Assembly (NCBI GenBank): GCA_036769565.1
Contig: DAIPKW010000002.1
Coordinates: 9,727 to 73,726, forward strand
Origin: Thermodesulfobacteriota bacterium
GTDB taxonomy: Bacteria; Desulfobacterota; BSN033; UBA1163
Length of the DNA: 64,000 nucleotides
Direction of reading: 5' to 3'
Shown: in pieces, positions 1 to 38,897 of the stretch
How the letters are laid out: each line of letters begins with the position of its first letter
How positions within the stretch are numbered: the first letter of the stretch is position 1
Notes under the pieces: model-generated
What the model saw: only the letters and a program-made list of their open reading frames with translations
What the model was told of the DNA's origin: nothing
The model's database searches: none
Made by a program: the position numbers and the translations under genes

Positions 1-428
1 TAAATGGCAATGGACATTGTCTCCAGTCCGAGGAAGATGATCAGCAGATGGGTCCCTCCTGTCATGAGCATCATCCCAAGTGCTGAGAAAAGGATGAGGG
101 CATAATACTCTCCAAACGCAATCCCTTCCCTGGAGGCATACCCCATGGAGATCAGGACTGTCAGAAAAGCGATGATCAGGATCGTGATCTTAAAGAAGAT
201 GGCAAACCCATCAGTGGTGAACATCCCTTCAAATCCTGTCTTGCCCGATCCGACCAGAGGAAGCGTATAGAAGAAGGCAATGACGACACCGATCAGGCTA
301 AGGATTCCGAGATATCCCTTTCTCTCCCCTTTGGGTGAAAAGACATCAACGAGAAGAACCAAAAACCCAAAGGCGGTGATGATGATTTCTGGCGCAATGA
401 GATAAAGATCAATTTCTGGCAGTTTCAT
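1..428 (-). CDS. nuoN: NADH-quinone oxidoreductase subunit N (N-terminal part; runs off the window edge)
   Basis: Not in the ORF track; translated by hand from ATG at 428 (GGAGG upstream): MKLPEIDLYLIAPEIIITAFGFLVLLVDVF... It is hydrophobic, has the NuoN-typical PE-I start and follows nuoM. Confidence 0.9.
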   Translation of the reverse strand, partial: MKLPEIDLYLIAPEIIITAFGFLVLLVDVFSPKGERKGYLGILSLIGVVIAFFYTLPLVGSGKTGFEGMFTTDGFAIFFKITILIIAFLTVLISMGYASREGIAFGEYYALILFSALGMMLMTGGTHLLIIFLGLETMSIAI

Positions 429-540: not shown

Positions 541-2100
541 TCATTTGACATTCTTACTTTCTATTTCCGCTACCATTTTCGTTGGAGCTGAAAAATCTGC
601 TTTCATCTCCACTTTTGTCCTGAAGTCTTTCAGGAATTTCTCCACGCTTGCATCCATCTTGTTGAAGAAGAGCTTGGGGTAGATCCCCATAAGGAAGATC
701 AGGGCGACCATAGGAATGAGCGTGATGACCTCCCGCGCATTGAGGTCCTTTAAACCCTCGTTCTTCGGATTGTTAATCTTTCCGAACATCACCCGTTGAA
801 ACATCCAGAGCATATAGGCCGCACCCAGTATGACTCCGGTTGCCGCCAAAACACCATAGACGACATTGGATCGAAATGCTCCCAGGAGGATGAGAAACTC
901 TCCCACGAATCCATTCGTTCCTGGAAGTCCGATGGAGGAAAGGGTGACAATCATAAAGAAGGTGGCAAAGACCGGCATCACCTTTGAGATGCCTCCAAAA
1001 TCGGCGATCATCCGTGTGTGTCTCCGCTCATAGATCATTCCGACGATCAAGAAGAGCGATCCCGTGCTGATACCGTGGTTGAGCATTTGATAGATCGAAC
1101 CCTGAACGCCCTGTGTATTGAAGGCGAACATGCCTAACATGACGTAACCAAGATGGCTGACGCTCGAAAAGGCCACCAATCGTTTCAGGTCGGGTTGCAT
1201 CATCGAGACCAGCGCTCCGTAAATGATTCCAATGAGCGCCAATACAGAGATCAAAGGCATCAGTTCGAGAGCCGCATTCGGGAATAGCGGAATGGCAAAC
1301 CGGATGAATCCATAGGTTCCCATCTTGAGCAAGACGCCTGCCAGAATTACGCTTCCTGCAGTAGGCGCTTCGGTGTGGGCATCGGGCAACCAGGTATGGA
1401 ATGGAAACATTGGCACCTTGATCGCAAAGGCCAGTGCAAAGGCTCCAAAGAGCCAGTATTGAGTGCCCAAAGGAATCCCCAGCTTATAAAGCTCCATCAC
1501 ATCAAAGGTGGCCTTTCCAGTTGCCTTCGCATTGATGAAATAGAGCGCTAAAATGGCAACCAGCATGAGCACGCTTCCAGCCATGGTGAAGAGGAAGAAC
1601 TTAATCGCTGCATAGATCCGCCTTGCCGGATTGCCCCAAACTCCAATGAGAAGGTACATCGGGATGAGCATCACTTCCCAGAAGACATAGAAGAGTACAA
1701 GGTCCAGCGCCACCAGTGCCCCAACCATTCCTGTCTCGAGAAAGAGGAAAGAGATCATATACTCTTTCACGCGGAAGGTGATCGCTGTCCAAGAACAGAG
1801 GATGCAGAGCACGGTCAAAAAGGTCGTCAGAAGCACGAGCAGAAGACTGATCCCATCGATCCCGAGTTTATAACTGATGCCATAGGCCTCGACCCACCAC
1901 CAGTCCTCCATGAATTGCATGGCTGCCGAGGTGGAATCGAATTTAAAAAAGAGTGGCAGAGAAGCTATAAATTCAACCAGGGCAAATGCCAGAGTTACCC
2001 TTCGGATCGTCTCCTCTTTCTTAATGAAGAGAAGTAGGATTGCACCGACCAGAGGGAAGAAGATGAGAAAGGATAGAATGGGAATTCCCAAGATGTCCAT
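541..2100 (-). CDS. nuoM: NADH-quinone oxidoreductase subunit M
   Basis: Antiporter-like subunit with motifs [31 protein letters not shown] and HGISTGSLF. Start moved to ATG 2100 (AAGGAG upstream). Confidence 0.97.
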
Positions 2101-2210
2101 GGAATTAACTCCTTTTATTGAAACGACTATTGCGAATGACACCGAATAGGGCGAATGAGAAATTTATGAATATTCGTTTAATTCGTTCTCTTTCGTGTCA
2201 TTCGGGTTAT

Positions 2211-4193
2211 TTAAAAGAATCCCCGGATGATATAGTAGATGACCAGGATCAGCCCTCCCAAAACGATGGAAAAGGCATAATTCTGAACCAATCCTGTCTG
2301 CACCTTACGCATCACACCAGAGAGCCATCCGATCAAATAGGCAATTCCATTGACCGTTCCATCGATCACGAGATCATCGAAGCCCTTCCAGAGCCCCCTG
2401 CCAAGGTTTTTCAGAGAGTTGACAAAGAGCACCTGATAGAGTTCGTCCACATAATATTTATTCGAAACGAGTTGATAGAGCCCTCTCCATCTCTGCGCCA
2501 ACATCTTAGGCAAGGCCGGATTTTTCAAATATAAGAAGTAAGCGATCCCGATCCCAATCAGGGCGATCACCACGGAGACAGCCATGAGCAGAAGCTCCAA
2601 TGTCGCCGAGTGCTCTCCTCCAGCACCTGCTGCCCACGCCTCTTGGATCAGCGAAAAACTTGCATGGGCTTTGACAGGCGGCCCATTGCCTACCACAGGT
2701 GCTAAAAATTCATGGATGTGATTGGCACCTCCTAAGACATGGGGAACACCCACATACCCTCCCACGATGGAGAGGAAAGCCAGAACCATCAATGGGATTG
2801 TCATGATCTTTGGCGATTCATGGATATGGTGTGCCACATGATGGTCCACTCTTGATTCTCCAAAGAAGGCCATGAAGAGCGCCCGGAACATATAGAAGGC
2901 GGTCATGCCCGCAGCCACAGCAGCCACCAGCCAGAGCAGGAAATGGCCGCGTTGGCTGGAGAAGGCCATCCAGAGGATCTCATCCTTGCTGAAGAAGCCC
3001 GAAAGTCCGGGTATACCTGCAATCGCCAGGGTCGCAATGAAGAAGGTGACAAATGTGATGGGAATCTTCTTTCTCAATGCGCCCATCTTCCGAATATCGA
3101 GCTCGCCGCTGAGCGCATGCATCACGCTCCCGGCGCCAAGAAAGAGGAGGCCTTTGAAGAAGGCATGGGTCATCAGGTGAAAGATCCCTGCGGCGTAAGC
3201 TCCCACACCGACTGCCAGAAACATATAACCCAACTGACTGATCGTCGAATAGGCCAGGATCTTCTTGATGTCGTACTGACAGAAGCCTATTGAGGCCGTA
3301 AAGATGGCGGTGGCACAGCCGACGATGGCAACCACGGCCATGGCAATGGGCGCCATGTTATAAAGGATGCTGCAACGGGCAACCATGTAGACACCTGCTG
3401 TCACCATGGTGGCTGCATGGATCAGAGAGCTGACCGGTGTCGGACCCTCCATGGCATCGGGAAGCCAGACATAGAGAGGTATCTGTGCCGACTTTCCGCA
3501 GGCGCCGACAAAAAGCAGAAGCGCAATGGCCGTAGCGGTCGCCGTATCGAGTTTGCCGACATTGGCAAAGACCTCGGTAAAATCGAGCGTCCATATCCCA
3601 TGCTGCCCTAAAGAGGTGAAGAGGAGAAACATCCCCAAGATGAAACCGAAATCACCAACCCGGTTGACGACAAAGGCCTTCTTTCCTGCATTGGATGCAG
3701 AATCCTTCTCATACCAGAAGCCAATCAGAAGATAGGAGCAGAGCCCAACGCCTTCCCACCCCACAAACATCAATAAGAAGTTGTTGGCCAGGACGAGGTT
3801 GAGCATCATGAAGACGAAGAGATTGAGATAAGTGAAATACCGGGTATAACCCGGATCATCATGCATGTATCCTACGGAGTAGATGTGAATGAAGAAGCTG
3901 ACGCCAGTCACGACCAGGGCCATCAGGATGGAGAGGGGATCGATCTGATAACCGATCACGGTCTGAAAAGAACCAGAAACCACCCAGTCAAAGAGGACCT
4001 TTTCAAAGAGCCTTTCTCCAGGAGGTCTTTGGATCAGTTCAAAAAAGATGAGGATCGACGTGAGAAAGGAGAGTCCGATGGCCGAAGGGCCGACCACGCT
4101 GACCACACCCTTTCCCAGGCGCTTCCCTAAGAGCCCGTTGATCAAAAATCCGATAAATGGAAATAGAGGAATTAACCAAACATATTCAAGCAT
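2211..4193 (-). CDS. nuoL: NADH-quinone oxidoreductase subunit L
   Basis: Motifs GWEGVGLCSYLLIGFW, KSAQIPLYVWLPDAMEGPTPVSSLIHAATMV and HLMTHAFFK. Confidence 0.98.
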   Translation of the reverse strand: MLEYVWLIPLFPFIGFLINGLLGKRLGKGVVSVVGPSAIGLSFLTSILIFFELIQRPPGERLFEKVLFDWVVSGSFQTVIGYQIDPLSILMALVVTGVSFFIHIYSVGYMHDDPGYTRYFTYLNLFVFMMLNLVLANNFLLMFVGWEGVGLCSYLLIGFWYEKDSASNAGKKAFVVNRVGDFGFILGMFLLFTSLGQHGIWTLDFTEVFANVGKLDTATATAIALLLFVGACGKSAQIPLYVWLPDAMEGPTPVSSLIHAATMVTAGVYMVARCSILYNMAPIAMAVVAIVGCATAIFTASIGFCQYDIKKILAYSTISQLGYMFLAVGVGAYAAGIFHLMTHAFFKGLLFLGAGSVMHALSGELDIRKMGALRKKIPITFVTFFIATLAIAGIPGLSGFFSKDEILWMAFSSQRGHFLLWLVAAVAAGMTAFYMFRALFMAFFGESRVDHHVAHHIHESPKIMTIPLMVLAFLSIVGGYVGVPHVLGGANHIHEFLAPVVGNGPPVKAHASFSLIQEAWAAGAGGEHSATLELLLMAVSVVIALIGIGIAYFLYLKNPALPKMLAQRWRGLYQLVSNKYYVDELYQVLFVNSLKNLGRGLWKGFDDLVIDGTVNGIAYLIGWLSGVMRKVQTGLVQNYAFSIVLGGLILVIYYIIRGFF

Positions 4194-4290: not shown

Positions 4291-4608
4291 TTACCATTTC
4301 AGTAAATTGACTTCATCCACATTGATCGTCTCTCTGGAACGATAGAGCATGACAAAGATGGCCAACCCGACTGCCGCCTCTGCAGCAGCTACGGCCATAA
4401 CGAAGAAAGCAAAGATTACCCCGTCCACCGATTGGAGAAAACGGGAGAGCGTGATGAAGGTCAGATTGACCGCATTGAGCATCAACTCAATACACATAAA
4501 GACGACGATCGCATTGCGACGGGTTAGCGCTCCGATCACACCGATCGTGAAGAGTATCCCGCTTAACATGAGATAGAGGGCAGGGGGAATGGTTGGTACG
4601 ACCCACAT
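4291..4608 (-). CDS. nuoK: NADH-quinone oxidoreductase subunit K
   Basis: About 105 aa with [10 protein letters not shown] and [10 protein letters not shown] motifs. Confidence 0.97.
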
Positions 4609-4620
4609 ATTCAATTCTCC

Positions 4621-5148
4621 TTATGTCCTTTTCTTGCTTAAAATCACGGCGCCGATGATGGCGGCAACCAGAAGGATCGAGACGATCTCAAAAGGAAAGA
4701 GATAGGTTGTAAAAAGACTCTCGCCTACCGTCTTCACGTTGGTACCCATCTTTTCAGGCGTATAGGAACCGGTCTGGCCGGTCGGCGACTTTGCCACAGC
4801 TACATAGAGGAGGCCTATGAGGAAAAGGACCGCCAGAAATCCTCCGATCACCTTGGAATAGACGATCTTCAGTTTCGAGCGAAGCTCTGTCTCCAGATCG
4901 AGGAGCATGATGACGAAGACGATGAGCATCACAATGGCTCCTGCATAGACGATGACCTGGATGATGGCAATAAATGGGTTGTGAAGCAGGATATAGAGCA
5001 CAGCCACGCAGAGTAAGGTCAACACCATGAAGAGCGCGCTGTGAATCGGATTTTTTCGGGTGATGACCAGAATGGAGGCCACAATCGAGACAAAGGCCAT
5101 CCCCATAAAGAGCAACCACTGAAAGAGGATCCCAAAATTTTCAGCCAT
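4621..5148 (-). CDS. nuoJ: NADH-quinone oxidoreductase subunit J
   Basis: Motifs NPIHSALF, QVIVYAGAIVML and PFEIVSILL; operon position. Confidence 0.96.
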   Translation of the reverse strand: MAENFGILFQWLLFMGMAFVSIVASILVITRKNPIHSALFMVLTLLCVAVLYILLHNPFIAIIQVIVYAGAIVMLIVFVIMLLDLETELRSKLKIVYSKVIGGFLAVLFLIGLLYVAVAKSPTGQTGSYTPEKMGTNVKTVGESLFTTYLFPFEIVSILLVAAIIGAVILSKKRT

Positions 5149-5263: not shown

Positions 5264-5677
5264 TTATGGATTATACTTCTTCTGATCTAACAGCTTCTCC
5301 GTGTTCATGAGAAAGGGTGCCCTTTCCCGAGCCACCCATTCATAATTCTTTCCCACAAAGATGGCATTGACTGGACAGGCCTCTTCACAATACCCGCAGA
5401 AGATGCACCTCAAGGCGTCCAGCTCATAGGTGAGGGGATAACGTCTTCCCTGTTCATTCTCTGCCGTCACAATCGAGATACACTGGGAAGGGCAGACCGC
5501 CATGCAGAGGCCACAGGCCACACACTTCAGCTGGCCCTTCTCATCCTTTTCAAAATACTGGATCCCCCTCCAGCGTTTTGCAGGAGGCACCTTCTGCTCG
5601 GGATACTGAATGGTAATCGGCCTGGAGAAGAACCGACCCAAAGTAAATGCCAAACCTTTAAGTAGTGGGACGATCAT
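5264..5677 (-). CDS. nuoI: NADH-quinone oxidoreductase subunit I (2x[4Fe-4S])
   Basis: TIQYPE motif and two ferredoxin motifs, CVACGLCMAVCP and CIFCGYCEEACP. Confidence 0.97.
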   Translation of the reverse strand: MIVPLLKGLAFTLGRFFSRPITIQYPEQKVPPAKRWRGIQYFEKDEKGQLKCVACGLCMAVCPSQCISIVTAENEQGRRYPLTYELDALRCIFCGYCEEACPVNAIFVGKNYEWVARERAPFLMNTEKLLDQKKYNP

Positions 5678-5755: not shown

Positions 5756-6775
5756 CTATCCCTTCAATGAGACGACCAGCGCGGTGATTAAAAGATTGAT
5801 CAGCGCCAGCGGAAAGAGAATCTTCCACCCAAACTTCATAATCTGATCGTACCGCAACCTCGGAAAGGTCCCTCTCTGCCAGATGAAGAAGAAGCAGAAG
5901 ATGAAGAGCTTACCGCAGAACCAGACGATCCCTGGAATAAAATCGAGCTGTGGCAGAGGAGCCTGCCATCCACCCCAGAAGAGCGTTACGGCCACCGCAC
6001 CCATGGTGATCATATGGGCATATTCCGCCATGAAGAAGAGAGCAAACTTCATACTGCTATATTCGATATTAAACCCGCAGGCAAGCTCCGATTCGGACTC
6101 CGGCATATCAAATGGAGTCCGGTTGATCTCTGCGAGACCACAGATGATGTAGAGAATGAAAGCGACAGGTTGATACCAGATGTTCCAGTTCCAGAACCCG
6201 CCAGCCTGCTGGTTGATGATGTCCGTCAGCCTCAGGCTCTGCGAGAGAATAATCACACCGATAATGGTGATCCCAAGCGCCACCTCGTAACTGATCATCT
6301 GAGCGGCTGCACGAAGGGAACCGGTCAGCCCATACTTATTGCCTGAAGACCAGCCTCCGAGCACAATTCCAAATTCCCCCAGTGAGGCAACCCCGAAGAT
6401 ATAGAGAAGCCCAATATCGACATCTGCAATCCGGAGTTTGACCACCCAATCGGTTCCCGGAATTTTAAACTCATTTCCAAAGGGGATGACTGCAAAGAGG
6501 GCAATGGCCGAGATGATGGCAATCATCGGTGAAAGAACAAAGACTGCTTTGTCTGCCTTACCAGGAACCAGATCTTCTTTGAAAAAAGCCTTAATGCCAT
6601 CCGAGAAGGGCTGAAGGAGTCCAAACGGACCACACCGATTGGGACCAAAACGGATCTGGATGTGGCCCAAGACCTTCCGCTCTAACCAGGTCAGATAGGC
6701 CACGGAGAGCATCAGACACGCAAAGACCACCACACACTTTACAATCGCCTCAATGAGAAGGTATAAGACCTGCAT
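5756..6775 (-). CDS. nuoH: NADH-quinone oxidoreductase subunit H
   Basis: Motifs ERKVLGHIQIRFGPNR, GLLQPFSDGIK, NRTPFDMPESESEL and FPRLRYDQ. Confidence 0.98.
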   Translation of the reverse strand: MQVLYLLIEAIVKCVVVFACLMLSVAYLTWLERKVLGHIQIRFGPNRCGPFGLLQPFSDGIKAFFKEDLVPGKADKAVFVLSPMIAIISAIALFAVIPFGNEFKIPGTDWVVKLRIADVDIGLLYIFGVASLGEFGIVLGGWSSGNKYGLTGSLRAAAQMISYEVALGITIIGVIILSQSLRLTDIINQQAGGFWNWNIWYQPVAFILYIICGLAEINRTPFDMPESESELACGFNIEYSSMKFALFFMAEYAHMITMGAVAVTLFWGGWQAPLPQLDFIPGIVWFCGKLFIFCFFFIWQRGTFPRLRYDQIMKFGWKILFPLALINLLITALVVSLKG

Positions 6776-7025
6776 CCTGCTTCTCCTCTAAATCCTTTTT
6801 GTCAGATAATCCATGCCCATAGGGCACCCTGAAACCATGAGAACAATCTATGGGTATTGAATAAGGTTACGGCTACGAAGCCCGTTTCGTCGTTCGGTAA
6901 CGATTACGGTTAAAAGAATGAAACACGGCAGACGTAGCTTTAAAGACGATACGGGCCCTGAACCTAATTGGTTTCAAGGCGGTCATTGTTACCATCACCG
7001 TTAGACGAAATCCTGATTCCTAAAA

Positions 7026-8978
7026 TTATACCGCAAACAACCCAACCCGAACGCACCTGAGACAGCGTTCTGCCTCCTTCTGTGCAACCGGGATAGGAAA
7101 TCCCTTCTCCACTTCGTCAAAAGTCCACTTTCTCGAATCGGGAGGAAGCATCTCCAGCATGGCCCGTTTCCTTCCGCCAGGAACACCGATCCTCTCATCT
7201 CTATTGTAGACCTTGATCTTCTCCATCAGTGTCTCCAGACGTTCCTCCTCCGACTCTCTGACTTCCACCCCTCTGAGAAACGCATCAATTTTATCAGCCG
7301 CCCTTCTTCCGTGGGCCGCGGCGCGAACAAGGACATCCGGTCCAATCACACAATCGCCTCCGGAGAAAATCCCTTCTCGGTTCGTCTGGAAGGTTCCCTC
7401 TTTTACAGAGATCGTGGAACGTTTGGTCGTCTTCACTCCGTCTTTCTCATCAAGAAAGGAGAGGTCGATCGCCTGGCCAATGGCAGGGATGACGATATCC
7501 GCTTCGATGAAGAATTCCGATCCTTTGATCGGAACTGGTCTTCGCCTTCCGCTCTCGTCTGGTTCGCCGAGCTCCATCCGGATACATTCCATCCCGACCA
7601 CTTTTCCATCCTTCTCGACGATCCGTACTGGATTGCAGAGGTAGTGAAACTTCACGCCCTCCTCTTCGGCGTCGTGGATCTCCACCCGGTCCGCAGGCAT
7701 CTCCTTCTTCGTCCGGCGATAGACCAGGTTCACATCGGGCTTGCCAATTCGGAAGGACGAACGAACACAGTCAATGGCCACATTGCCTCCACCCACAACC
7801 ACCACCCTCTTTCCCTCGGGGTAGGGATCTCTTCCAAGATTGATTTCAAGGAGGTAGTAGACCCCTGGGATAAATCCTTTATATCCCTTGTCCTCTCCCT
7901 CCACACCCATGGGCGTATTGGTCTGGGCACCCACAGCAATATAGATGGCTTTAAAACCCTGCTCGAACATCTGGGAAAGGGTTATATCCTTTCCCACCTG
8001 CGTGTTATATCGGATCTCAACCCCAAGCTGTTGAACCAGACCGGCCTCGTATCTCAATATCTCTCTCGGAAGCCTGTAGTCTGGAATTCCAACAGCAGCC
8101 ATGCCTCCGGGCTCGCCCAATCTCTCAAAAATCGTGACAGAGTAACCCTTCAAAGCCAGATAATAGGCACAGGTCAGCCCAGAGGGTCCAGCTCCGATGA
8201 TCGCTACCTTTTCAGAACGGGCAGAGGTTTTAACCAGGTCGGGTTTGATCTCTCTTTCCAGTTCATAATCTGCCACAAATCGCTTGAGCCATTTGATGGA
8301 GACGCATTCGTCCACATTCTGACGTCTGCAATTGTCCTCACAGGGCCGAATGCAGACCCTTCCAAGCACACCTGCCAAACAGGTCGCCTCCCGTATGGTT
8401 GAAAGAGCCTCCAGATACCTGCCTTCCTTGATCAGCTCCACATAGTGGGTAATCGGAAGGTGGGAAGGACAGGCGCTCTCACAGGGAGCGGTTACCTTCA
8501 CTTTGTACTCTTCACGCGGAATCCTCTTCTTGGACTGAATCGCTTCGATGAACTCTTCCCTGAAATATGCGATGGCATGGAGCACAGGCTTGGGTCCGGT
8601 CTGTCCAAGGTTACATTTCGAACTCCTTAAGATCATCTCGCCTAAGAACTTCAGCTGTTCCAGATCCCCCGCTCTTCCTTCTCCTCCCGCAATCCGGTTG
8701 AGAATCGATGACATAATTTGAGTTCCTACCCGACAGGGGGTGCACTTCCCGCACGATTCCTTCTGGACGGCTTCCATATAGGCACGAATCAGGTCAACGA
8801 TATTGACTTCAGGATCCCGAACGGCAATCCCGTCCCAACCGATGAAGGCCTTGATCTTCTTCTCCTGATCGAATTCAAGGGGAAGATTGAGATTGGAGAT
8901 GGACTGTCTCTCTCCTTCGGGTTTCCCCCGATTATCCACAATTGCCCCACCCCAACTGCTAAAAAGGATATCTGTCAT
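7026..8978 (-). CDS. SfrB/GltD-like FAD and Fe-S NAD(P)H oxidoreductase with an N-terminal NuoF-type [4Fe-4S] motif
   Basis: Starts MTDILFSSWGGAIVDNR...FIGWDG, which resembles Geobacter SfrB as I recall it. Contains SCGKCTPCR...KCNLGQ, GltD-type APCESACP/GRVCIRPCEDNCRR, FAD motif IGAGPSG and NAD(P)H motif VVGGGNVAID. Confidence 0.85.
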   Translation of the reverse strand: MTDILFSSWGGAIVDNRGKPEGERQSISNLNLPLEFDQEKKIKAFIGWDGIAVRDPEVNIVDLIRAYMEAVQKESCGKCTPCRVGTQIMSSILNRIAGGEGRAGDLEQLKFLGEMILRSSKCNLGQTGPKPVLHAIAYFREEFIEAIQSKKRIPREEYKVKVTAPCESACPSHLPITHYVELIKEGRYLEALSTIREATCLAGVLGRVCIRPCEDNCRRQNVDECVSIKWLKRFVADYELEREIKPDLVKTSARSEKVAIIGAGPSGLTCAYYLALKGYSVTIFERLGEPGGMAAVGIPDYRLPREILRYEAGLVQQLGVEIRYNTQVGKDITLSQMFEQGFKAIYIAVGAQTNTPMGVEGEDKGYKGFIPGVYYLLEINLGRDPYPEGKRVVVVGGGNVAIDCVRSSFRIGKPDVNLVYRRTKKEMPADRVEIHDAEEEGVKFHYLCNPVRIVEKDGKVVGMECIRMELGEPDESGRRRPVPIKGSEFFIEADIVIPAIGQAIDLSFLDEKDGVKTTKRSTISVKEGTFQTNREGIFSGGDCVIGPDVLVRAAAHGRRAADKIDAFLRGVEVRESEEERLETLMEKIKVYNRDERIGVPGGRKRAMLEMLPPDSRKWTFDEVEKGFPIPVAQKEAERCLRCVRVGLFAV

Positions 8979-8989
8979 GTTAACCCTCA

Positions 8990-9153
8990 TTTTCGAAAAT
9001 CCGAAATCCGAATATCGGGCGTAGCGTCCTCTTAGGACCAATCCGAAACAAATTTTTAAATTCAAATCACCAAAATTTTTAAGATTCTCTTTCGTTTTGA
9101 ATTTCGAAAATTTGAAATTGTTTCGACATTCGAATCTCGTGCTTCGAATTTAT
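8990..9153. repeat. Heptamer-periodic palindromic element, family C, between nuoD and the sfrB-like gene
   Basis: TTCGAAAATCCGAAATCCGAATATC... on the left and ...TTTCGACATTCGAATCTCGTGCTTCGAATTT on the right. Confidence 0.75.
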
Positions 9154-9158
9154 TCTTT

Positions 9159-10331
9159 TTACCGATCGATCTCACCCAACACAATATCAATACTTCCGAT
9201 GGTGGCGATGACATCGGCAATCAGACTTCCCTCAATCATCTTGGGAAGCGCGCTTAAGTTGAGGAAAGAGGGAGGTCGGATTCTCATCCTCAAAGGTTTA
9301 TTCGAACCATCGCTCACAAGATAGAAACCCAATTCCCCTTTGGCAGCTTCGACACTTGCATAGACTTCCCCTTTGGGTGGCTGGAACCCTTCGGATGCAA
9401 TCTTGAATTGCCGAATCAAAGAGGCGATATCGGTCAGGACCATCTCTTTGGGAGGCAGAACCACCCTGGGATCATCAGCGAGAATCGGGCCTTTGGGCAA
9501 ACGGTCCAGGGCCTGTCTCACAATGGCATTTGACCACTCCATCTCCCTCAACCGGACATAGTACCGATCGTAGACATCGCCTACTGTCCCTGTGGGAATG
9601 TCGAATTCGAAATCCTCATAACTCGAATAGGGAAAAACTTTCCTCACATCCCACTTTACTCCGGATCCACGAAGCGTCGGCCCGGTCACACCCCAATTGA
9701 TGGCATCTTCTTTCGAAATGATTCCCACTTCCTTGGTCCGTTTCAACCAGATCACATTCTTTGTCAGAAGCGTCTCATACTCCTTCATGTGGCCTGGAAA
9801 GGCGTCAACAAAATCCTTGATCTTTTTGTCGATCCCTTCTGGAAGGTCTTTAGCAACCCCTCCGATTCTCAAATAGGTTGGGGTCAATCTTCCGCCGGCC
9901 ACCTCTTCGAAGATCCTGAGAATATCCTCCCTTTCACGGAAATTATAGAAGAGCAGGGTCATTGCGCCGATGTCGAGCGCATGGGTTCCAAGCCAGATGA
10001 GATGTGCCGCAAGCCTCTGGAGTTCAGCCATCATCACTCTCAGGTATTGAGCCCGTTTCGGGACCTCAATGCCAAGAAGTTTTTCAACGGCCAGGACATA
10101 GGCCAGGTTATTCCCCATCGCATTGGTGTAATCTAACCGATCCGTGAGGGGAATGACCTGATGATAGGTTCTGGACTCAGCTAATTTCTCAACCCCCCGA
10201 TGGAGGTGTCCGATGTGGGGAGTTGCTTTAACAATAATTTCTCCATCCAGTTCCAATACAAGCCTCAACACCCCATGTGTGGCCGGGTGCTGGGGACCCA
10301 TATTGATGGTCATGAATCGTGTCTCTGCCAT
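9159..10331 (-). CDS. nuoD: NADH-quinone oxidoreductase subunit D
   Basis: NMGPQHPATHGVLRL, DRLDY and C-terminal DIVLGEIDR. No [NiFe]-binding CxxC pairs. Confidence 0.98.
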   Translation of the reverse strand: MAETRFMTINMGPQHPATHGVLRLVLELDGEIIVKATPHIGHLHRGVEKLAESRTYHQVIPLTDRLDYTNAMGNNLAYVLAVEKLLGIEVPKRAQYLRVMMAELQRLAAHLIWLGTHALDIGAMTLLFYNFREREDILRIFEEVAGGRLTPTYLRIGGVAKDLPEGIDKKIKDFVDAFPGHMKEYETLLTKNVIWLKRTKEVGIISKEDAINWGVTGPTLRGSGVKWDVRKVFPYSSYEDFEFDIPTGTVGDVYDRYYVRLREMEWSNAIVRQALDRLPKGPILADDPRVVLPPKEMVLTDIASLIRQFKIASEGFQPPKGEVYASVEAAKGELGFYLVSDGSNKPLRMRIRPPSFLNLSALPKMIEGSLIADVIATIGSIDIVLGEIDR

Positions 10332-10332
10332 T

Positions 10333-10821
10333 TCAGACCTCGGGGACAAAAGGTTTGTCAAAATCCGGTCCTTCGACCGGGAAATCTTTCCTCAGGGGGT
10401 GTCCTTCATAACCATCCCAGAGGAGGATTCTCCTCAAATCGGGATGATTCTCAAAGGTGATTCCATAAAGATCGTAAACCTCCCTCTCAAGCCAGTTCGC
10501 TGCCTTCCAGATCGATTCGACACTGGGCATCGACTCGCCCTCTCCGATCTTCGTCTTCAATCTCAATCGACTGTTCGATTTGAAGGAGTAGAGGAGATAG
10601 ACCACTTCAAATCGGGGTACCTGTGGGAAATAGTCAACCCCGCAGAGATCGGTCAACATATGGTACTGGAGATCGGGTTCCGCATAGAGAAATCGACAAA
10701 TCTCAAAGAGATCCTTCTTCGGTACCGTAATATTGACTTCACCCCGAAAGGTTGTCACCTCCAAGATCGAAGCGGGAAATTTTGCTTCCAACTTTTTAAC
10801 TGCTGGATGAACTTCTGCCAT
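10333..10821 (-). CDS. nuoC: NADH-quinone oxidoreductase subunit C
   Basis: ANWLEREVYDLYGITFENHPDLRRILL...GHPLRKDFP. Confidence 0.98.
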   Translation of the reverse strand: MAEVHPAVKKLEAKFPASILEVTTFRGEVNITVPKKDLFEICRFLYAEPDLQYHMLTDLCGVDYFPQVPRFEVVYLLYSFKSNSRLRLKTKIGEGESMPSVESIWKAANWLEREVYDLYGITFENHPDLRRILLWDGYEGHPLRKDFPVEGPDFDKPFVPEV

Positions 10822-10822
10822 A

Positions 10823-11344
10823 TCAATCTATCCTTTCCACAATCTCTTCTGGGATCAGCCGAACATTCTTTCGATCGGCAAGGGTTTCTGTCTCAATCTT
10901 CTTCTGGAGTTCAACGATTGCTGTAAGGAGTGTCTCTGGCCTCGGCGGACAGCCCGGTACATAGACATCTACTGGAATCATCTGATCCACACCCTGAACC
11001 ACATTGTAGGTCTTAAAAATTCCTCCTGAACAGGCGCAGGCCCCATAGGCAATGACCCACTTGGGTTCTGGCATCTGTTCATAGATGCGTTTGACCATGG
11101 GCGCCATCTTCTTGGTCAGGGTGCCTGCCACAATCATCAGATCTGCCTGCCGTGGAGATGGCCTGAAGACCTCGGAACCAAATCGCGAAATATCCCACGT
11201 CGCCGAACTGGTGACGATCATCTCCAGCGCGCATCAGGCAAGACCGAAGGTGACCGGCCAGATCGAATACTTTCGGCCCCAGTTGACCACTTTATCCAGT
11301 ACAGGCATCAAGGGGGTTTTTTCAAGGTAGGTTTCTATTCCCAT
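10823..11344 (-). CDS. nuoB: NADH-quinone oxidoreductase subunit B, with an in-frame TGA (putative selenocysteine) at 11234-11236
   Basis: The track ORFs 11234..11455 and 10823..11221 are in one frame: ...TGG CCG GTC ACC TTC GGT CTT GCC TGA TGC GCG CTG GAG ATG = [13 protein letters not shown], matching the NuoB GLxCCxxEM motif. Downstream motifs [14 protein letters not shown] and PGCPPRPE are intact. Reads 173 aa from ATG 11344. Confidence 0.93.
11198..11216 (-). promoter_or_regulatory. Putative bacterial SECIS hairpin of nuoB
   Basis: Minus-strand CGUCACC-AGUUC-GGCGACG gives 6 pairs plus one A.C mismatch. The loop starts 24 nt after the UGA and has G at position 2 followed by U, which fits the bacterial SECIS model. 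Confidence 0.6.
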
Positions 11345-11691
11345 TCGAGTGCTCCTTTTTTCCAAATATAGATATAGGCAATGATCAAAATCCCAATAAA
11401 TACGGCCATCGAAACAAAGCCAAACATCTTCAAATCTTTGAAGATGACGGCCCATGGATAGAGAAAGACGATTTCAATATCGAAGATCAGAAAGAGCAAG
11501 GCAATGATATAGTATTTGATCGGGATCCTCCGAAAGGAAGAACCATAGGTCGTCATGCCACACTCGTAAGGTGCCTCTTTAAGCAGTGTCTGCTTTCTCT
11601 GGCCTAAGAGATAAGAGGCGAGAATGGCAAAGCAGGCAAAGATGACGGCTATGGCAAAATAGAAAAGGATGGGAAGATAATCCATTAACAT
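11335..11691 (-). CDS. nuoA: NADH-quinone oxidoreductase subunit A
   Basis: PYECG, KYYIIALLFLIFDIEIVFLYPWAV and WKKGALEW. Confidence 0.98.
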   Translation of the reverse strand: MLMDYLPILFYFAIAVIFACFAILASYLLGQRKQTLLKEAPYECGMTTYGSSFRRIPIKYYIIALLFLIFDIEIVFLYPWAVIFKDLKMFGFVSMAVFIGILIIAYIYIWKKGALEWE

Positions 11692-11739
11692 GATGATACC
11701 CTCTTATGAAAATTTTTTTGTGCCCTGTCGACCTATAAA

Positions 11740-11769
11740 ATTGGCTCCGTCTCGTCAAGTGGGGCCAAT
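11740..11769 (-). terminator. Weak hairpin followed by a short U run between fdhA and nuoA
   Basis: Minus-strand ATTGGC-C-CC...GG-A-GCCAAT with a 12-nt loop and one mismatch, followed by TTTAT. Confidence 0.3.
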
Positions 11770-11779
11770 CCTCTTCGTA

Positions 11780-14452
11780 CTATCCCCCATATTTCTCAAC
11801 CCGCACGGTTGAATATTTAAGATCCGGGATCTTCGACTCTGGATCAAGCACCGTATTCGTAAGAAGATTGACCGGTGCCTCGCTAAAGTGAAACTTTGCA
11901 AAGACCACACCTCTTCCAACCCTATCGGTAACCTTCGCTTTTGAAATGAAATCGCCTCTACGGCTGACCACCCTTATCCGATCACCCTCTTTGATTCCAA
12001 GTTGGGTTGCATCGGATGGGTTTATTTCCACGAGGCTTTCAGGAGACATCTCGTTGAGAAGTCTGACTTTACGGGTCATACTGCCCGCATGATAATGGTA
12101 GTAGTCCCGACCTGTGCTTAAGATGAACGGATACTCCTGATCCGGAACCTCGGGTGGAGGAGTGAAATCCACCGGAACAAAGAGCCCTTTTCCTCGAACG
12201 ATTTTGCCTCTATGAAGGATCGGTGTTCCGGGATGATCCTCCGTTGGGCACGGCCACTGCAGGCCACCAGATTCCAATCTGGCATAGGTGATGCCTGCGT
12301 ACTGAGGCGTGACTTTCCGAATCTCTTCGAAGATGGCTTCAGGACCTTCATAATCCATGGAGTAACCCAATCTCCTCGAGATTTCAGAGATGATCTTCCA
12401 ATCTGGCATCGCTCCTTTCGGTCCCTCGACAACCTTTCTCACCCTTTGAACCCTTCTCTCAGTGTTCACAAAGGTTCCGTCCTTCTCGAGGAAGCAGAGA
12501 GAGGGCAAGACAACGTGGGCCATCTGTCCGGTCTCTGTTAAAAAGATGTCCTGGACCACAAGAAGTTCCAGCCCAGCATAGGCCTTCTTAAGATGGGATA
12601 GGTCAGGATCTGTTACCATGGGATTTTCGCCCATGATGTAGAGGGCTTTGATCTTTCCATCCAGGGCCGCCTTGCTCATCTCCACGACCGTCAAACCCGG
12701 CTTTCCTGAAAGAGAGACACCCCATTGGCTTTCGAATTTATCCTGCAACTCTCTTACGGCCACGCTCTGATATCCAGGATAGACCGTGGGCAGACAACCC
12801 ATGTCACAGGCGCCCTGGACATTGTTCTGACCTCTCAGTGGGTTGACACCACTTCCGGGTCTTCCCACCTGACCGCAGAGAAGGGCCAGATTGGAAATCG
12901 CCTTTACCCCATCTGTTCCAGAAGAGTGTTGGGTAATGCCCATGCAGTAAAGAATGGCCGCATTTTTAGCGGAACCATATATCCGAGCGGCCTTAATCAA
13001 CTTCTCTTTGGGAATGCCGGTCACTTGTTCCACAAACTCTGGCGTATACCGGGCGACCTTCTCTTTGACCGCTTCAAAGCCTTCTGTATTCTGTTCGATA
13101 AAGGATTTATTATAAAGGTTTTCTCTGATGATGATGTGGGCCAACCCATTTAACCAGGCAATATCATCTCCAGGCTTGGGTTGAAGCCAGAGGGTGGCTT
13201 CCTCAACCAGATCGATCTTTCTCGGATCAACGACAATGATCTTCGCCCCATTGAAACGGGAACGATGCCTCAAGAGCATCCCGATGACCGGATGGGTCTC
13301 TGTGGTGTTGCTCCCGGTAACCAACAAGACATCGGCCTGCTGAAAATCAGCAAGAGAATTGGTCATGGCTCCAGAGCCGAGGGTGGTGGCCAGACCGACC
13401 ACTGTACTGGAGTGTCAGAGACGGGCGCAATGGTCGATATTGTTCGTGCCGATGGCCGCCCTGATCAACTTCTGGAAGAGATAGTTCTCCTCGCATGTGG
13501 CGCGCGCCGAGGCGAGGCCAGCAATACTGTCAGGTCCATACTTCTCTTTAATGGCCTTGAGTTTGTCAGAGACAAAGCTTAAAGCTTCGTCCCAGCTCAC
13601 CTCTCGGAATGAGCCATTTTCTCGGATCAGAGGCATGTGAAGTCGATCTGGGCTGTTCACAAATTCAAATCCGAACCGTCCTTTCACGCAGAGCACGCCG
13701 TTATTGGTTCCGAGCCCTTCTTTGGTGGTAATCTTAAACACCCGGTTACCTACCGCGTTCACTTCCAGGGAACAACCCACTCCGCAATAGCCGCATACTG
13801 TGGTCACCCTTTTAGCCTGCCACTTCCTTCCTTTGATGGGGCTCACATTTTCAGTCAACGCTCCCACAGGACAGGCTGCGAGACATTCGCCGCAGGAGAT
13901 ACATCGTTCGGGTTTGATCGGCTCAACTCTGGCATTAAAACCGGTTCCCTGAAGATCGAGGACTTCTCTGCCAGCAATCTCTCGGCAGGCACGGATACAA
14001 CGGCTGCAGAGGATGCAGCGATTGGGATGGTACTTGATCGCAGGTGTGGAATAGGTCTTGTACTCTTTGGCAGGTGTCTCCACCTGATACTCGGCTTTTT
14101 GAATCCCATACTCATAAACATAATCCTGAAGATCGCATTCACCACCTTTATCACAGACCGGGCAATCAAGAGGGTGATTTACCAGCATGAACTGGAGGAC
14201 TTCTCTTCGAATCTCCCGAATCTTCGGGGTGTCGGTTTCGATCACCATGCCATCTGTGGCTGGAGTGTTACAAGCAGTGACAGGGTTTTCGAGATCTTTA
14301 ACCTCAACCACACACATCCTGCAGAAACCTGTGGGAATAAGGCTCTCCATGTGGCACAGCGTTGGTATTCGGAAACCGTTCTGCTGAGCAATGCTCAGTA
14401 TTGTAGCTCCCTCCTCCGCCTCAATAGCTCTGCCATTGATTGTAACTCTCAT
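11780..14452 (-). CDS. fdhA: Selenocysteine-containing formate dehydrogenase alpha subunit (Mo/W-bisPGD) with a NuoG-type Fe-S N-terminus
   Basis: The track ORFs 13415..14452 and 11780..13402 join in frame through TGA at 13415-13417: DHCARL-U-HSSTVVGLATT. N-terminal motifs IPTLCH/GFCRMC, HPLDCPVCDKGGECDLQ, CILCSRC, CISCGEC and CGYCGVGC; also LRGQNNVQG. Confidence 0.95.
13386..13402 (-). promoter_or_regulatory. SECIS hairpin of fdhA
   Basis: Minus-strand GUGGUC-GGUCU-GGCCAC, a 6-bp stem with a G-starting loop 18 nt after the UGA. Confidence 0.75.
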
Positions 14453-14523: not shown

Positions 14524-14541
14524 TTGTGAAATATTTAATTA
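14524..14541. promoter_or_regulatory. Possible Rex-like operator upstream of fdhA
   Basis: TTGTGAA-ATAT-TTAATTA matches 11 of 14 positions of TTGTGAA-N4-TTCACAA. It lies just downstream of a minus-strand TTGACA (14573-14578). Confidence 0.35.
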
Positions 14542-14798
14542 GCCCATATTCAATAGAACAACCAGTTAAATTTGTCAAGTAAAAAAATGAGATTTTTTAA
14601 AAAAGCTATGGACATTAGATGAGAGCGATTTTTGAACTATTTCTAAACTTAATAACTTATTGAAAACAAAAGATAATTTGTGAAATGAATAAGCCAAAAG
14701 GAGTCTATAGGGTCTTCGCTTTTAGATCTTGAAAAAAATTGCTTTTTTAAATATCCTTAATTTAAGCTTATCTGATTCCTTATAAAAGGGTGTCTAAG

Positions 14799-18811: not shown

Positions 18812-18833
18812 CTCCATACCTCCTTTCCAGAAT

Positions 18834-28592: not shown

Positions 28593-28855
28593 CGGTTTCC
28601 TCTCTTCCTAGCCTTAGAGACTGTGTCTTAATGTGTCTTAATCAGAAGAGACTATTTTCTCAAAAAGGGGAGAAGTGGTCAGGTGAAAGAGATTTAGAGC
28701 GGTTACCTTTAACCGTTCGGATTCAGGCTTTCCGAACATATTAAAACATTCGATTTGATACAAGCTCCGATTCCCTATCATCTAAAACACCCGCATTCTA
28801 AATCTTTGGGACCTGACTCGCTCTCCCCTTTAGCCTATGATGATGAAACAGTTTC

Positions 28856-30706
28856 CTAACAGACACGAATTGCGTGAAATTTGCATGCCTCATAACAGGC
28901 GCCACATTTTGTGCATCGATCTTGTGCGATGGCATGGGGTTTCTTCTTCTCTCCCGTGATCGCTTCAACCGAACACTTTTTCGCACAGGCGCCACAACCA
29001 TTGCAGATTTCGGGATCGATCTCGTAATGGAACAAGGCTTTACATACCCCTGCCTCACACCGTTTCTTCAGGATATGGGCTTCGTACTCAGGGAGAAAGT
29101 AACGAAGGGTCGTTTGCACCGGATTGGGAGCGGTCTGACCCAGACCACAGAGCGAACCTTTTTGAACGGTCTCGCTTACCTCCTTGAGAATCTCGAGATC
29201 TTCGGGCGTTCCTTTTCCCTCGCAGATCTCATTGAGGATGTCGAGCATCTGTCGCGTGCCAAGGCGGCAGGGGATACACTTTCCGCATGACTCATTAGCC
29301 GTGAAAGAGAGAAAATACCTTGGTATATCCACCATACAGGTCTCCTCATCCATCACCACCATACCACCAGATCCCATGATGGAACCCGCTGCTGTGAGCG
29401 ACTCATAATCAACGGGCAGGTCGAAAAGCTCAGCCGGAATGCATCCTCCTGAGGGGCCACCGGTCTGAACCGCCTTCACTCTTTTCCCTTTTCCCACACC
29501 TCCACCAATCTCATAGATGATCTCTTTGAGACGAATCCCCATGGGAACTTCGATGAGACCGGTTCGCTCCACTTTTCCTGCCAGGGCAAAGGTCTTTGTC
29601 CCTTTGCTCTTCTCCGTTCCAAAGCTGGCATACCACTTCGCTCCTTTTTCCAAAATGGCGGAGACATTGGCAAAGGTCTCCACATTGTTGATGTTGGTGG
29701 GATTTCCCCAGAGTCCTTTAATCGCTGGAAAAGGAGGCCTTGATCGCGGCATGCCCCTGCCACCGGCAATCGAAGCCATCAGGGCAGTCTCCTCTCCACA
29801 GACAAACGCTCCTGCCCCTTCTTTGATGTGAATCTCAAAACTGAAACCACTCCCCATGATATGTCGACCTAATAGATTGGCCTCTTCCATCTGGATCAGG
29901 GCTGTCTCCAGCCGCTTAATGGCTAATGGATATTCGGCACGGATATAGATGTAACCTTCGCTGCATCCGATCGCATAGGCTCCGATGAGCATTCCCTCAA
30001 GAACAGAGTGGGGATCTCCTTCGAGCAGGGAGCGATCCATAAAAGCACCCGGGTCTCCCTCGTCCGCATTACAGATGATATACTTTGTTCGGCCGGGCGC
30101 CTTTTTGGCGAATTCCCACTTCATTCCCGTAGGAAAACCAGCACCTCCTCTTCCACGAAGGCCTGAATCCTTGATCTCTTGAATCACCTCTTCCGGAGCC
30201 ATCTGAAGCGCCTGCGCCAACCCGCTGTATCCGCCCCGGGCAATGTAGTGTTCAATATTCTCCGGGTCAATGATACCGCAATTTCGAAGCGCAATCCGAA
30301 CCTGGGGTTTGATCATGGGCAGATCCTCGAAGTGTGGGATCCCATCCACAGGCCCAACGCCAATGAAACAGACAGCCCACTCTGGCTTTGGATCGTCGTC
30401 TTTAAGATAGGCAAGGAGAATCTCTTCGGTCTTTTTGGCTGTGAGGTTTCCATAGTAGATAAAAGGTCCTCCTGGTTTCCGGACCGCCATAATCGGCTCA
30501 AGATAGCAGGTGCCAATGCATCCGACCTGGAGGATGCGACCCAGAAGGTTCATCTGTTTGAGCGTCTGTTTGGCCGCTGCAAATACCTCATCCGCACCGG
30601 CTGCTTTACCGCAGGTGCCCATACCGATCTGGATGAGGGGCTGCTTTAGGTTCTCGAGCGCTCTCCAGTTTTTCTCAGCCCGCTGCTTGATCAATGAAAA
30701 ATCCAT
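28856..30706 (-). CDS. NuoF/HydB(HylB)-like NADH-binding flavoprotein subunit
   Basis: SGLRGRGGAGFPTGMKW, NADEGDPGAFMDR, GGPSGG, SCGKCIPCR, an N-terminal GTCG/GCIGTC [2Fe-2S] domain and a C-terminal 2x[4Fe-4S] domain. Confidence 0.92.
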   Translation of the reverse strand: MDFSLIKQRAEKNWRALENLKQPLIQIGMGTCGKAAGADEVFAAAKQTLKQMNLLGRILQVGCIGTCYLEPIMAVRKPGGPFIYYGNLTAKKTEEILLAYLKDDDPKPEWAVCFIGVGPVDGIPHFEDLPMIKPQVRIALRNCGIIDPENIEHYIARGGYSGLAQALQMAPEEVIQEIKDSGLRGRGGAGFPTGMKWEFAKKAPGRTKYIICNADEGDPGAFMDRSLLEGDPHSVLEGMLIGAYAIGCSEGYIYIRAEYPLAIKRLETALIQMEEANLLGRHIMGSGFSFEIHIKEGAGAFVCGEETALMASIAGGRGMPRSRPPFPAIKGLWGNPTNINNVETFANVSAILEKGAKWYASFGTEKSKGTKTFALAGKVERTGLIEVPMGIRLKEIIYEIGGGVGKGKRVKAVQTGGPSGGCIPAELFDLPVDYESLTAAGSIMGSGGMVVMDEETCMVDIPRYFLSFTANESCGKCIPCRLGTRQMLDILNEICEGKGTPEDLEILKEVSETVQKGSLCGLGQTAPNPVQTTLRYFLPEYEAHILKKRCEAGVCKALFHYEIDPEICNGCGACAKKCSVEAITGEKKKPHAIAQDRCTKCGACYEACKFHAIRVC

Positions 30707-30767
30707 AGCGCACCTCAATCTTTCTCTCTTCAGGTTATCTCATCTTTAAAACCACCCCAAGGGCAAT

Positions 30768-30850
30768 TTATAGCGCAAGTCTTTAGCCCTGCCCGCCTAC
30801 AGGACAGGCAGGTAGGCCTCTCGAAGCAACCCTAAAGGGCTGCGTTACAA
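30768..30850. repeat. REP-like composite hairpin
   Basis: TAGCGCAAGTCTTTAG...CCTGCCCGCC...GGCAGG...GCAACCCTAAAGGGCTGCGTTA, with nested inverted repeats. Confidence 0.55.
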
Positions 30851-30873
30851 TGAAATTTAAAAAATCAGTCAAT

Positions 30874-38839: not shown

Positions 38840-38851
38840 CGTTCAATCCCT

Positions 38852-38879
38852 GTAGGGAACGCATATATGCGTTTCCTAC
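38852..38879. repeat. GTAG-type REP hairpin
   Basis: GTAGGGAACGCAT-AT-ATGCGTTTCCTAC, a near-perfect palindrome. Confidence 0.75.
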
Positions 38880-38897
38880 GATCGTCTGTGGGTGAAG

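Follow-up and report, generated by a model that had tools for sequence, protein, structure and literature searches.

A quinone-type complex I operon with a predicted NADP-formate dehydrogenase/SfrAB-type protein pair as the proposed substitute for NuoEFG and a selenocysteine codon in nuoB

Of the respiratory enzymes, complex I is the largest; the handful of input modules known for it accept electrons from NADH, F420H2, ferredoxin, or flavodoxin. An 11-subunit core served by a lineage-specific input is found in Fpo with FpoF (F420H2), in cyanobacterial NDH-1 with NdhS/V/O (ferredoxin), and in Campylobacter Nuo (flavodoxin), and the same general plan can be read from the operon described here. 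We analyzed a 64-kb stretch of contig DAIPKW010000002.1 (positions 9,727-73,726, forward strand; hereafter the window), in which all operon genes lie on the minus strand in the order fdhA(Sec)-nuoA-nuoB(Sec)-nuoC-nuoD-flavoprotein-nuoHIJKLMN, where Sec denotes a selenocysteine codon and fdhA encodes a predicted formate dehydrogenase (FDH). Unlike the modules of Fpo, NDH-1, and Campylobacter Nuo, the candidate module in this operon pairs a flavoprotein that joins a NuoF C-terminal domain to a GltD-type module with an FDH/NuoG-like protein, and its donors would be NADPH and formate. The combination of a quinone-type nuo operon with an SfrB/FdhB-type flavoprotein and an FDH/NuoG-like partner would constitute a new input module for complex I. 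No such operon was described in our literature search, outside the coverage of which lay most subscription journals, and the initial annotation of this DNA, made from the sequence alone, had likewise not recognized the variant as described.

Set against canonical complex I (T. thermophilus Nqo1-14, E. coli Nuo), the operon has the complete core of 11 subunits in the customary order, and the N1b, N4, and N5 motifs of NuoG are found here in FdhA and the N3 motif of NuoF in the flavoprotein. The differences concern electron input: NuoE, the FMN/NADH domain of NuoF, and a degenerate NuoG are absent from the operon, the predicted donor sites are a GltD-type FAD/NADPH site and, for the variant in the window, a Sec-Mo/W site active on formate, and the first ligand of cluster N2 is Sec instead of Cys. 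The closest counterparts of the two added proteins belong to the NADPH-dependent FDH of Moorella thermoacetica and to Geobacter SfrAB. According to a 2026 paper (PMC13040438), the purified Moorella enzyme consists of an alpha subunit of 96 kDa, which contains Sec, and a beta subunit of 76 kDa, whose gene is ‘sfrB2’. Compared by description, these enzymes have the same two-protein make-up, similar sizes, and a Sec-containing alpha subunit with a NuoG-like N-terminus, and the calculated masses of 98.1 and 72.5 kDa for our pair match the Moorella subunits. However, the Moorella and Geobacter enzymes are soluble and their genes lie outside nuo operons, whereas here nuoABCD separates the alpha gene from the beta gene, which sits between nuoD and nuoH.

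Two further groups of enzymes share part of this design. In E. coli formate hydrogenlyase (PMC9474812), Fdh-Mrp-Mbh, and Fdh-Ech, an FDH is likewise plugged onto a complex-I-like membrane module, but the NuoD homologue of these systems is the large subunit of a proton-reducing [NiFe] hydrogenase, whereas the NuoD encoded here has quinone-site residues. FdhH also differs from our FdhA in that it has no NuoG-type N-terminus and docks through HycB. The Stn/NfnABC bifurcating transhydrogenases (8oh5, 9bov, 9n5u) wire a GltD module to NuoG- and NuoF-like parts. They are soluble and use a complete FMN-containing NuoF-like subunit together with a NuoE-like one, whereas the flavoprotein described here retains NuoF only as an N3 domain fused in front of its GltD module.

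The genes of the operon, in the order of transcription, are as follows.

14452..11780, minus strand: fdhA, predicted cytoplasmic Sec-containing formate dehydrogenase alpha subunit, 890 residues, 98.1 kDa
11691..11335, minus strand: nuoA (Pfam Oxidored_q4, E = 6.7e-36)
11344..10823, minus strand: nuoB, selenoprotein, with an in-frame TGA at 11236-11234 (FGLA-U-CALEM)
10821..10333, minus strand: nuoC (Pfam Complex1_30kDa, E = 6.9e-47)
10331..9159, minus strand: nuoD, quinone type, with the equivalents of His38 and Tyr87 and without [NiFe] cysteines
8978..7026, minus strand: flavoprotein gene, FdhB/SfrB-like, 650 residues, 72.5 kDa
6775..5756, minus strand: nuoH
5677..5264, minus strand: nuoI
5148..4621, minus strand: nuoJ
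4614..4291, minus strand: nuoK
4193..2211, minus strand: nuoL
2142..541, minus strand: nuoM
428..1, minus strand: nuoN, cut by the end of the window

The coordinates and the Pfam/NCBIfam domain assignments bear out the gene order that the initial annotation had proposed, and both of the in-frame Sec codons that it had placed in fdhA and nuoB are confirmed. Its observation that the N-module is missing holds as well, as nuoE, nuoF, and nuoG are all absent from among the operon genes, and the flavoprotein gene does occupy their slot, the arrangement nuoD-flavoprotein-nuoH recurring in 33 of the 33 closest species. The nuoN gene is complete in relatives, and the eleven core subunits A, B, C, D, and H-N are all encoded together. 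The genome uses TGA in the usual way, as a stop codon, with which nuoB itself terminates, and a variant genetic code is therefore ruled out as the source of the in-frame TGAs. A comparison with Rfam gave zero matches inside the operon.

Judged by its motifs, the core is of the true respiratory complex I type. NuoD scores 570 bits on TIGR01962 and contains the sequences QHPATHG and DRLDY, which supply the quinone-site His and Tyr (equivalent to His38 and Tyr87). We looked in NuoD for the N- and C-terminal cysteine motifs of [NiFe] hydrogenases (RxCGxC and DPCxxC) and found neither, and its score against Pfam NiFeSe_Hases (21.7 bits) falls below the cut-off of 25.8. The absence of the [NiFe] cysteine pairs rules out a formate hydrogenlyase or another group 4 [NiFe] hydrogenase, as had been concluded earlier from the same features. 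NuoI carries two [4Fe-4S] motifs, and the nearest structure to NuoB is T. thermophilus Nqo6 (2fug_6, E = 3e-65).

The product of fdhA combines a complete FDH with the N-terminal part of NuoG. Its in-frame TGA (13417-13415) stands in the classical context HCARL-U-HSS, and the protein scores 878.6 bits on the TIGR01591 Fdh-alpha model (cut-off 666). Pfam assigns Fer2_4, NADH-G_4Fe-4S_3, Fer4_Nqo3, Molybdop_Fe4S4, Molybdopterin, and Molydop_binding domains. The NuoG-type N-terminus comprises a 2Fe-2S site, a His-ligated 4Fe-4S site, and two more 4Fe-4S sites, thereby carrying N1b, N4, and N5 motifs, and is followed by the FS0 cluster. The His-ligated cluster motif is HPLDCPVCDKGGECDLQ, present as the initial annotation had stated. 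The domains for the Mo/W-bis(pyranopterin guanine dinucleotide) cofactor (bisPGD) are present, with U346, H347, and R540 as the predicted catalytic residues. In a sequence search of the PDB, the nearest solved structure was FdsA of Rhodobacter capsulatus (6tg9_A, E = 7e-237).

The flavoprotein begins at a conserved MTDILF, and the TTG start at 9065 is an artefact of the open reading frame (ORF) caller. Its Pfam domains are NADH_4Fe-4S (the C-terminal domain of NuoF), Fer4_20, and Pyr_redox_2. At the N-terminus, the NuoF-type N3-cluster domain provides the ligands C76-x2-C79-x2-C82-x39-C122, and its nearest relatives in the PDB are the C-terminal N3 domains of HydB, StnB, and NuoF. This N3 domain, which contacts NuoG in complex I, is the only portion of NuoF that has been kept. 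The remainder is a GltD/NfnB-type module with predicted sites for two [4Fe-4S] clusters, FAD, and NADPH, for which the top PDB matches are NfnA of 9n5u and the StnC-type chains of 9bov and 8oh5 (E = 4e-117 to 2e-102). The Fer4_20 match (residues 163-244) aligns with profile positions 29-112 only, and the extreme C-terminus (residues 630-650) contains a CxxC, EAERCLRC, that resembles a displaced first CxxC of the GltD module. From the sequence, this looks like a circular permutation of the N-terminal cluster site of GltD. On the minus strand, the spacers on either side of the flavoprotein gene are unusually long, 180 nt toward nuoD (8979-9158) and 250 nt toward nuoH (6776-7025); the former is AT-rich with repeated TTCGAA-like palindromes. 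The corresponding spacers measure approximately 30-45 nt in some relatives.

We searched for the flavoprotein in one genome per GTDB species, took the best 80 of 345 relatives, and mapped the window proteins onto those 80 loci by tblastn. Among these best 80 of 345, nuo genes flank the flavoprotein gene in all 33 loci that are at least 75% identical to it and adjoin it in none of the loci at or below 60% identity. The 33 nuo-linked loci belong to Syntrophaceae, Thermodesulfobacteriota, or ‘Deltaproteobacteria’ metagenome-assembled genomes (MAGs), all Syntrophales-like, from groundwater, serpentinite, peat, and lake water. In a midpoint-rooted neighbor-joining tree of NuoC, NuoD, the flavoprotein, and NuoH, they form two reciprocally monophyletic groups. 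What the sequences establish is the set of genes with their domains and cofactor motifs, a conserved synteny, and, by comparative criteria, the decoding of Sec. The gene order is also reproduced in independent assemblies: in the public assemblies ERZ1744544 and JGI 3300010288 (L081 and L082), NuoC is identical to that of the window and the genes follow in the same order.

The operon occurs in three variants. Variant 1, found in the window and 8 further species, reads fdhA(Sec)-nuoABCD-flavoprotein-nuoH-N and has no NuoG-like gene inside the operon. Variant 2, found in ≈20 species, reads nuoABCD-flavoprotein-X-nuoH-N, where X is a paralogue of 877-894 residues that is 44% identical to FdhA; in one such locus (L016), the spacers in the flavoprotein-X stretch are 26-45 nt long. 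Paralogue X retains the full NuoG-type N-terminus and the FS0 motif, but it reads GARLSSGSS where FdhA reads CARLUHSS, with loss of Sec and His, and the catalytic Arg is gone as well. It scores 659 bits on Fdh-alpha (cut-off 666) and 423 bits on NuoG, and, as far as the motifs tell, its decay is the kind of degeneration seen in NuoG itself. Because Sec, His, and Arg are gone from X and the FAD/NADPH site is the sole substrate site left, variant 2 would be driven by NADPH only. Variant 3 is represented by two metagenome contigs that read nuoABCD-flavoprotein. In L142, a catalytic Sec-containing FdhA (HCARLUHSS) then directly follows, and the locus in L086 ends within the flavoprotein gene. The variant 3 proteins are 62% (NuoD), 60% (flavoprotein), and 55% (FdhA) identical to those of the window.

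Each variant seen thus encodes the flavoprotein together with a protein that has a NuoG-type N-terminus, either adjoining it or immediately upstream of nuoA. Since every variant pairs the two, this pattern argues that the flavoprotein and its NuoG-like partner form the electron-input head. The sequence comparisons indicate that the conserved head is this pair and not FDH activity as such, as a catalytic FDH partner occurs only in the sub-clade of the window and in one distant lineage (L142). The initial annotation had pictured a complex I re-fitted with an FDH. The pairing on which that picture rests is upheld, whereas FDH activity is not the conserved element, X being dead in the sister sub-clade; nuoD-flavoprotein-nuoH synteny extends to all 33 loci, but this fdhA is missing upstream of nuoA in variant 2.

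Outside the clade, the flavoprotein gene is immediately followed by an FdhA-like gene without nuo genes. Hosts of this stand-alone pair include a Syntrophales MAG, Desulfacinum infernum DSM 9756, and many Syntrophomonadaceae and Bacillota MAGs. In a neighbor-joining tree, the FdhA of the window clusters with the catalytic FdhAs of the stand-alone pairs, and the variant 2 paralogues form a long sister branch. A NuoD search for an outgroup nuo operon returned the same clade alone, the best 120 hits all being at least 84% identical.

A formate dehydrogenase of another type is found upstream of nuoA in eight variant 2 genomes, a location shared with the fdhA of variant 1. In L011 (497-6975), the ORFs upstream of nuoA encode an hdrA-like protein, a 264-residue Cys-rich Fe-S protein that is FrhB/FdhB-like by eye only, and a short Sec-containing FdhA without the NuoG-type N-terminus. 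The hdrA-like gene and the short FdhA suggest an Hdr-linked FDH. A tblastn match to the short FdhA occupies the equivalent position in L014, L016, L017, L021, L022, L027, and L030; the Sec motif was confirmed in 6 of these 7, and the L022 match lies at the same coordinate.

The second selenoprotein of the operon, NuoB, carries Sec at a ligand of the terminal iron-sulfur cluster. The in-frame TGA stands in for the first of the two adjacent Cys ligands of N2 (Cys45 in T. thermophilus Nqo6); overall, U37, C38, C103, and C132 of NuoB align with Cys45, Cys46, Cys111, and Cys140 of Nqo6, the four N2 ligands. Across the clade, TGA is found at this position in the window plus 16 further species, TGC or TGT takes its place in 11, and Cys forms arise at four or more separate places on the tree. 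The flanking codons differ synonymously only, which indicates purifying selection on both sides of the TGA. Downstream lies a hairpin that resembles a selenocysteine insertion sequence (SECIS).

11216..11198, minus strand: SECIS-like hairpin of nuoB, CGUCACC-AGUUC-GGCGACG, 7 bp, beginning 18 nt after the UGA

The loop of this hairpin is AGUUC or AGUAU. Single-sequence folding energies of the SECIS regions were uninformative, with z-scores of ≈0 even for the bona fide fdhA element, and we judged the SECIS by covariation instead. Pairing of the stem reaches 94% across the 17 TGA sequences, where two compensatory pairs also occur, but only 64% across the 11 Cys sequences. The genes selA, selB, selC, and selD are not present in the 64-kb window; the existence of the Sec machinery in the genome is implied by the Sec-type fdhA.

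We also scanned metagenome contigs for the exact pattern FGLA-TGA-C-A-I-E-M, which by its design excludes the clade of the window (ALEM). The scan returned at least 120 matches, of which loci L083-L162 were examined. Among the matches listed, nuoB is otherwise intact around the TGA in 79 of 80 metagenome loci, and in the 36 loci where the gene after nuoD is visible, this gene is nuoE in 18, nuoH in 15, and the flavoprotein gene in 2. The nuoE-type loci are canonical 14-gene operons with a degenerate nuoG, and the nuoH-type loci are 11-gene operons. Each sequence group has its own distinct hairpin ≈17-20 nt after the UGA, and one of these groups has full-length Cys-type relatives that bear the names Nitrospirae or Thermodesulfovibrionales. 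On this comparative evidence, Sec-NuoB is a genuine and widespread selenoprotein that is not peculiar to the present operon. The earlier view of two selenoprotein subunits therefore stands as far as the reality of Sec is concerned, but Sec-NuoB is not special to this complex, as it is also found in 14- and 11-gene operons. A review that tabulates 119 prokaryotic selenoprotein families (PMC13188914, May 2026) has no entry for NuoB, PF01058, or complex I, the deep-Sep paper is likewise silent on Sec-NuoB, and no description of it was found in our literature search. Both selenoproteins are mis-annotated in public data, where gene calls cut nuoB into 36 residues plus 104 or 132 and fdhA into 345 plus 540. 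Sec-NuoB forms a selenoprotein family present in at least two phyla and in both 14- and 11-gene operons, affecting the annotation of many MAGs, and Sec at an N2 ligand position is relevant to the way in which the potential of this final cluster is set.

Two promoter-like elements precede genes of the operon.

14524..14578, minus strand: fdhA promoter-like element, consensus match, with -35 TTGACA (14578-14573), -10 TATTGA (14555-14550), and a TTTCACAA box (14531-14524)
11730..11758, minus strand: nuoA promoter-like element, with -35 TTGACG (11758-11753), a 17-nt spacer, and -10 TAGGTC (11735-11730)

The fdhA element is near-identical in 8 of 9 variant 1 loci. Upstream of nuoA, the motif CTTGACAAA..TTGTAGTTT..TTTTCACAA is kept in variants 1 and 2, and the variant 2 relatives have the nuoA element although this fdhA does not lie upstream. 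Both elements are sigma-70-like and have a common layout, TTGACAAA (also given as CTTGACAAA), ≈47 nt, and TTTCACAA, which suggests common regulation; the TTTCACAA box could be an operator. The ‘weak hairpin’ noted previously between fdhA and nuoA (≈11768-11735) overlaps the -35 box of the nuoA element. Because fdhA has its own conserved element and the nuoA element is found without this fdhA, fdhA is probably a separate transcription unit. Separate transcription, which the initial annotation had named as evidence that would speak against a joint enzyme, is thus indicated in part, by two conserved promoter-like elements, yet a search of the fdhA-nuoA interval in the window and two relatives revealed no terminator-like site.

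Taking these results together, we favor with moderate confidence a quinone-reducing, proton-pumping NuoABCDHIJKLMN complex in which NuoEFG has been replaced by a two-protein head of the NADP-FDH/SfrAB type. A physical attachment of this head to NuoI/B/C/D seems, on balance, somewhat probable. In the proposed mechanism, NADP(H) would bind at the GltD-type FAD of the flavoprotein, and electrons would pass through two [4Fe-4S] clusters to the NuoF-type N3 cluster. FdhA would contribute the NuoG-type N1b-N4-N5 chain and the Sec/Mo(W)-bisPGD site for formate/CO2. The next carriers after the N5-type cluster would be NuoI (N6a, N6b) and N2 of NuoB, with Sec at one of its four ligand positions, and the electrons would finally reach menaquinone at NuoD/NuoH. 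The enzyme would then be a formate- and/or NADPH:menaquinone oxidoreductase. Variant 2 would be an NADPH:quinone complex I, to which the active Sec-Mo/W site of variants 1 and 3 would add formate/CO2. The enzyme is probably reversible; in a Syntrophales-like anaerobe living on aromatic compounds or fatty acids, it could run backward, with the proton motive force driving electrons from menaquinol to CO2, yielding formate, or to NADP+. We infer the specificity for NADPH, the menaquinone partner, and the operating direction from sequence.

A second FDH cluster, overlooked in the initial annotation, lies on the same strand 11 kb from the operon and bears on the choice among explanations.

31383..30874, minus strand: nuoE-like gene, 169 residues (NF005722, 148.6 against a cut-off of 141)
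30718..28856, minus strand: nuoF/HydB-like gene, 620 residues (NF010120, 406.9 against a cut-off of 389)
28592..25647, minus strand: Cys-type catalytic fdhA, 981 residues (HCARLCHAS; Fdh-alpha 856 bits), with a C-terminal extension of ≈80 residues

Its 620-residue NuoF-like protein is extended at the N-terminus and carries a two-[4Fe-4S] ferredoxin domain at the C-terminus, features typical of the HydB/HylB type. The cluster (31383..25647) probably encodes a self-contained NAD/ferredoxin-linked, possibly bifurcating FDH and not the N-module of complex I.

Several observations weigh against a complex I with a replaced head. The Moorella homologue is a soluble alpha2beta2 enzyme, and such a pair can therefore operate without a membrane partner. 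The window spacers around the flavoprotein gene are long (180 and 250 nt) and may hold internal regulatory elements or the leftovers of a lost gene; fdhA is probably transcribed on its own; a nuoE/nuoF-like pair is encoded 11 kb away in the same window; and the history may have been an in-situ replacement of nuoEFG or an insertion into an 11-gene operon, both of which fit. The solubility of the Moorella enzyme (PMC13040438), the frequency of stand-alone flavoprotein-FdhA pairs in other taxa, the promoter-like element of fdhA, and the commonness of 11-gene nuo operons (the 15 of 36 metagenome loci noted above) would all agree with two separate, co-regulated enzymes, a soluble NADP(H)-FDH and a headless 11-subunit complex I fed by ferredoxin or another carrier, whose genes are interleaved for co-expression. 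We regard this arrangement as plausible but unlikely. It offers no reason for the exact placement of the flavoprotein gene, in the nuoEFG slot of 33 of 33 species, nor for the tight packing of a dead, NuoG-like X into the variant 2 operon, where a dead FDH alpha subunit with NADPH alone has no obvious soluble role; it also leaves unaccounted for that the variant without an in-operon paralogue always has an FdhA with a NuoG-type N-terminus next door.

Alternatively, the true N-module could be the one encoded at 31383..25647, its proteins docking on Nuo while the in-operon flavoprotein serves as an accessory or alternative NADPH entry. The two proteins do pass the NuoE (NF005722) and NuoF (NF010120) cut-offs, the genes share the strand of the operon at a distance of 11 kb, and split nuo operons with a separate nuoEFG have been reported (PMC5736913). 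However, NuoF-like proteins of the HydB/HylB type belong to soluble, often bifurcating enzymes, the partner is a fully catalytic FDH and not a degenerate NuoG, and the in-operon flavoprotein and NuoG-like pair would be left without a role, which together make this explanation very improbable. The occurrence of nuoEFG elsewhere, which the initial annotation had anticipated as a counterargument, is thus matched by a nuoE/nuoF-like pair, but one of HydB/HylB type beside a catalytic FDH. Public gene calls, which split nuoB and fdhA, could suggest that the TGAs stem from sequencing errors or mark pseudogenes and that an assembly chimera produced the gene order. We consider such artefact or decay effectively refuted: the same TGA recurs in the 16 further species and alternates only with Cys codons, purifying selection acts on both sides of it, a covarying hairpin follows, nuoB with this TGA is otherwise intact in 79 of the 80 metagenome loci among the matches listed, and independent assemblies repeat the gene order.

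If the replacement of NuoEFG by the flavoprotein and its NuoG-like partner is correct, NADPH and formate would be added to complex I as direct energy-conserving donors or acceptors, and a living lineage would replay the presumed descent of NuoG from a formate dehydrogenase. It would also offer a testable menaquinol-to-formate route of reverse electron transport in syntrophs. A bolder extension, which we put forward tentatively and consider rather doubtful, is that a family of uncultured syntrophs has turned complex I into a reversible enzyme, coupled to the proton motive force, that wires the menaquinone pool directly to both CO2/formate and NADP(H). Its GltD-type FAD might bifurcate or confurcate electrons between a low-potential formate site and a high-potential quinone path, and its N2 would be Sec-ligated, a trait also widespread in anaerobe complex I, Nitrospirota-type 14-subunit enzymes included. 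A single enzyme of this kind would solve the problem that reverse electron transport poses in syntrophic oxidation.

The rest of the window encodes benzoyl-CoA-reductase-like BcrAD/HGD-D proteins, CoA ligases, and an HpaB/AbfD-family dehydratase, a gene content that points to an anaerobic host that degrades aromatic compounds or fatty acids. The genes at 17360-18964 and 37997-45105 (minus strand), among them that of the HpaB/AbfD-family protein, which is 4-hydroxybutyryl-CoA-dehydratase-like, fit a fermenting or syntrophic lifestyle. Elsewhere in the window, Rfam detects an nhaA-I RNA on the minus strand (52874-52932; 40.2 bits, gathering threshold 37), upstream of two genes, one for the periplasmic binding protein (52446..51241) of a branched-chain-amino-acid-type ABC transporter and one for a CoA ligase.

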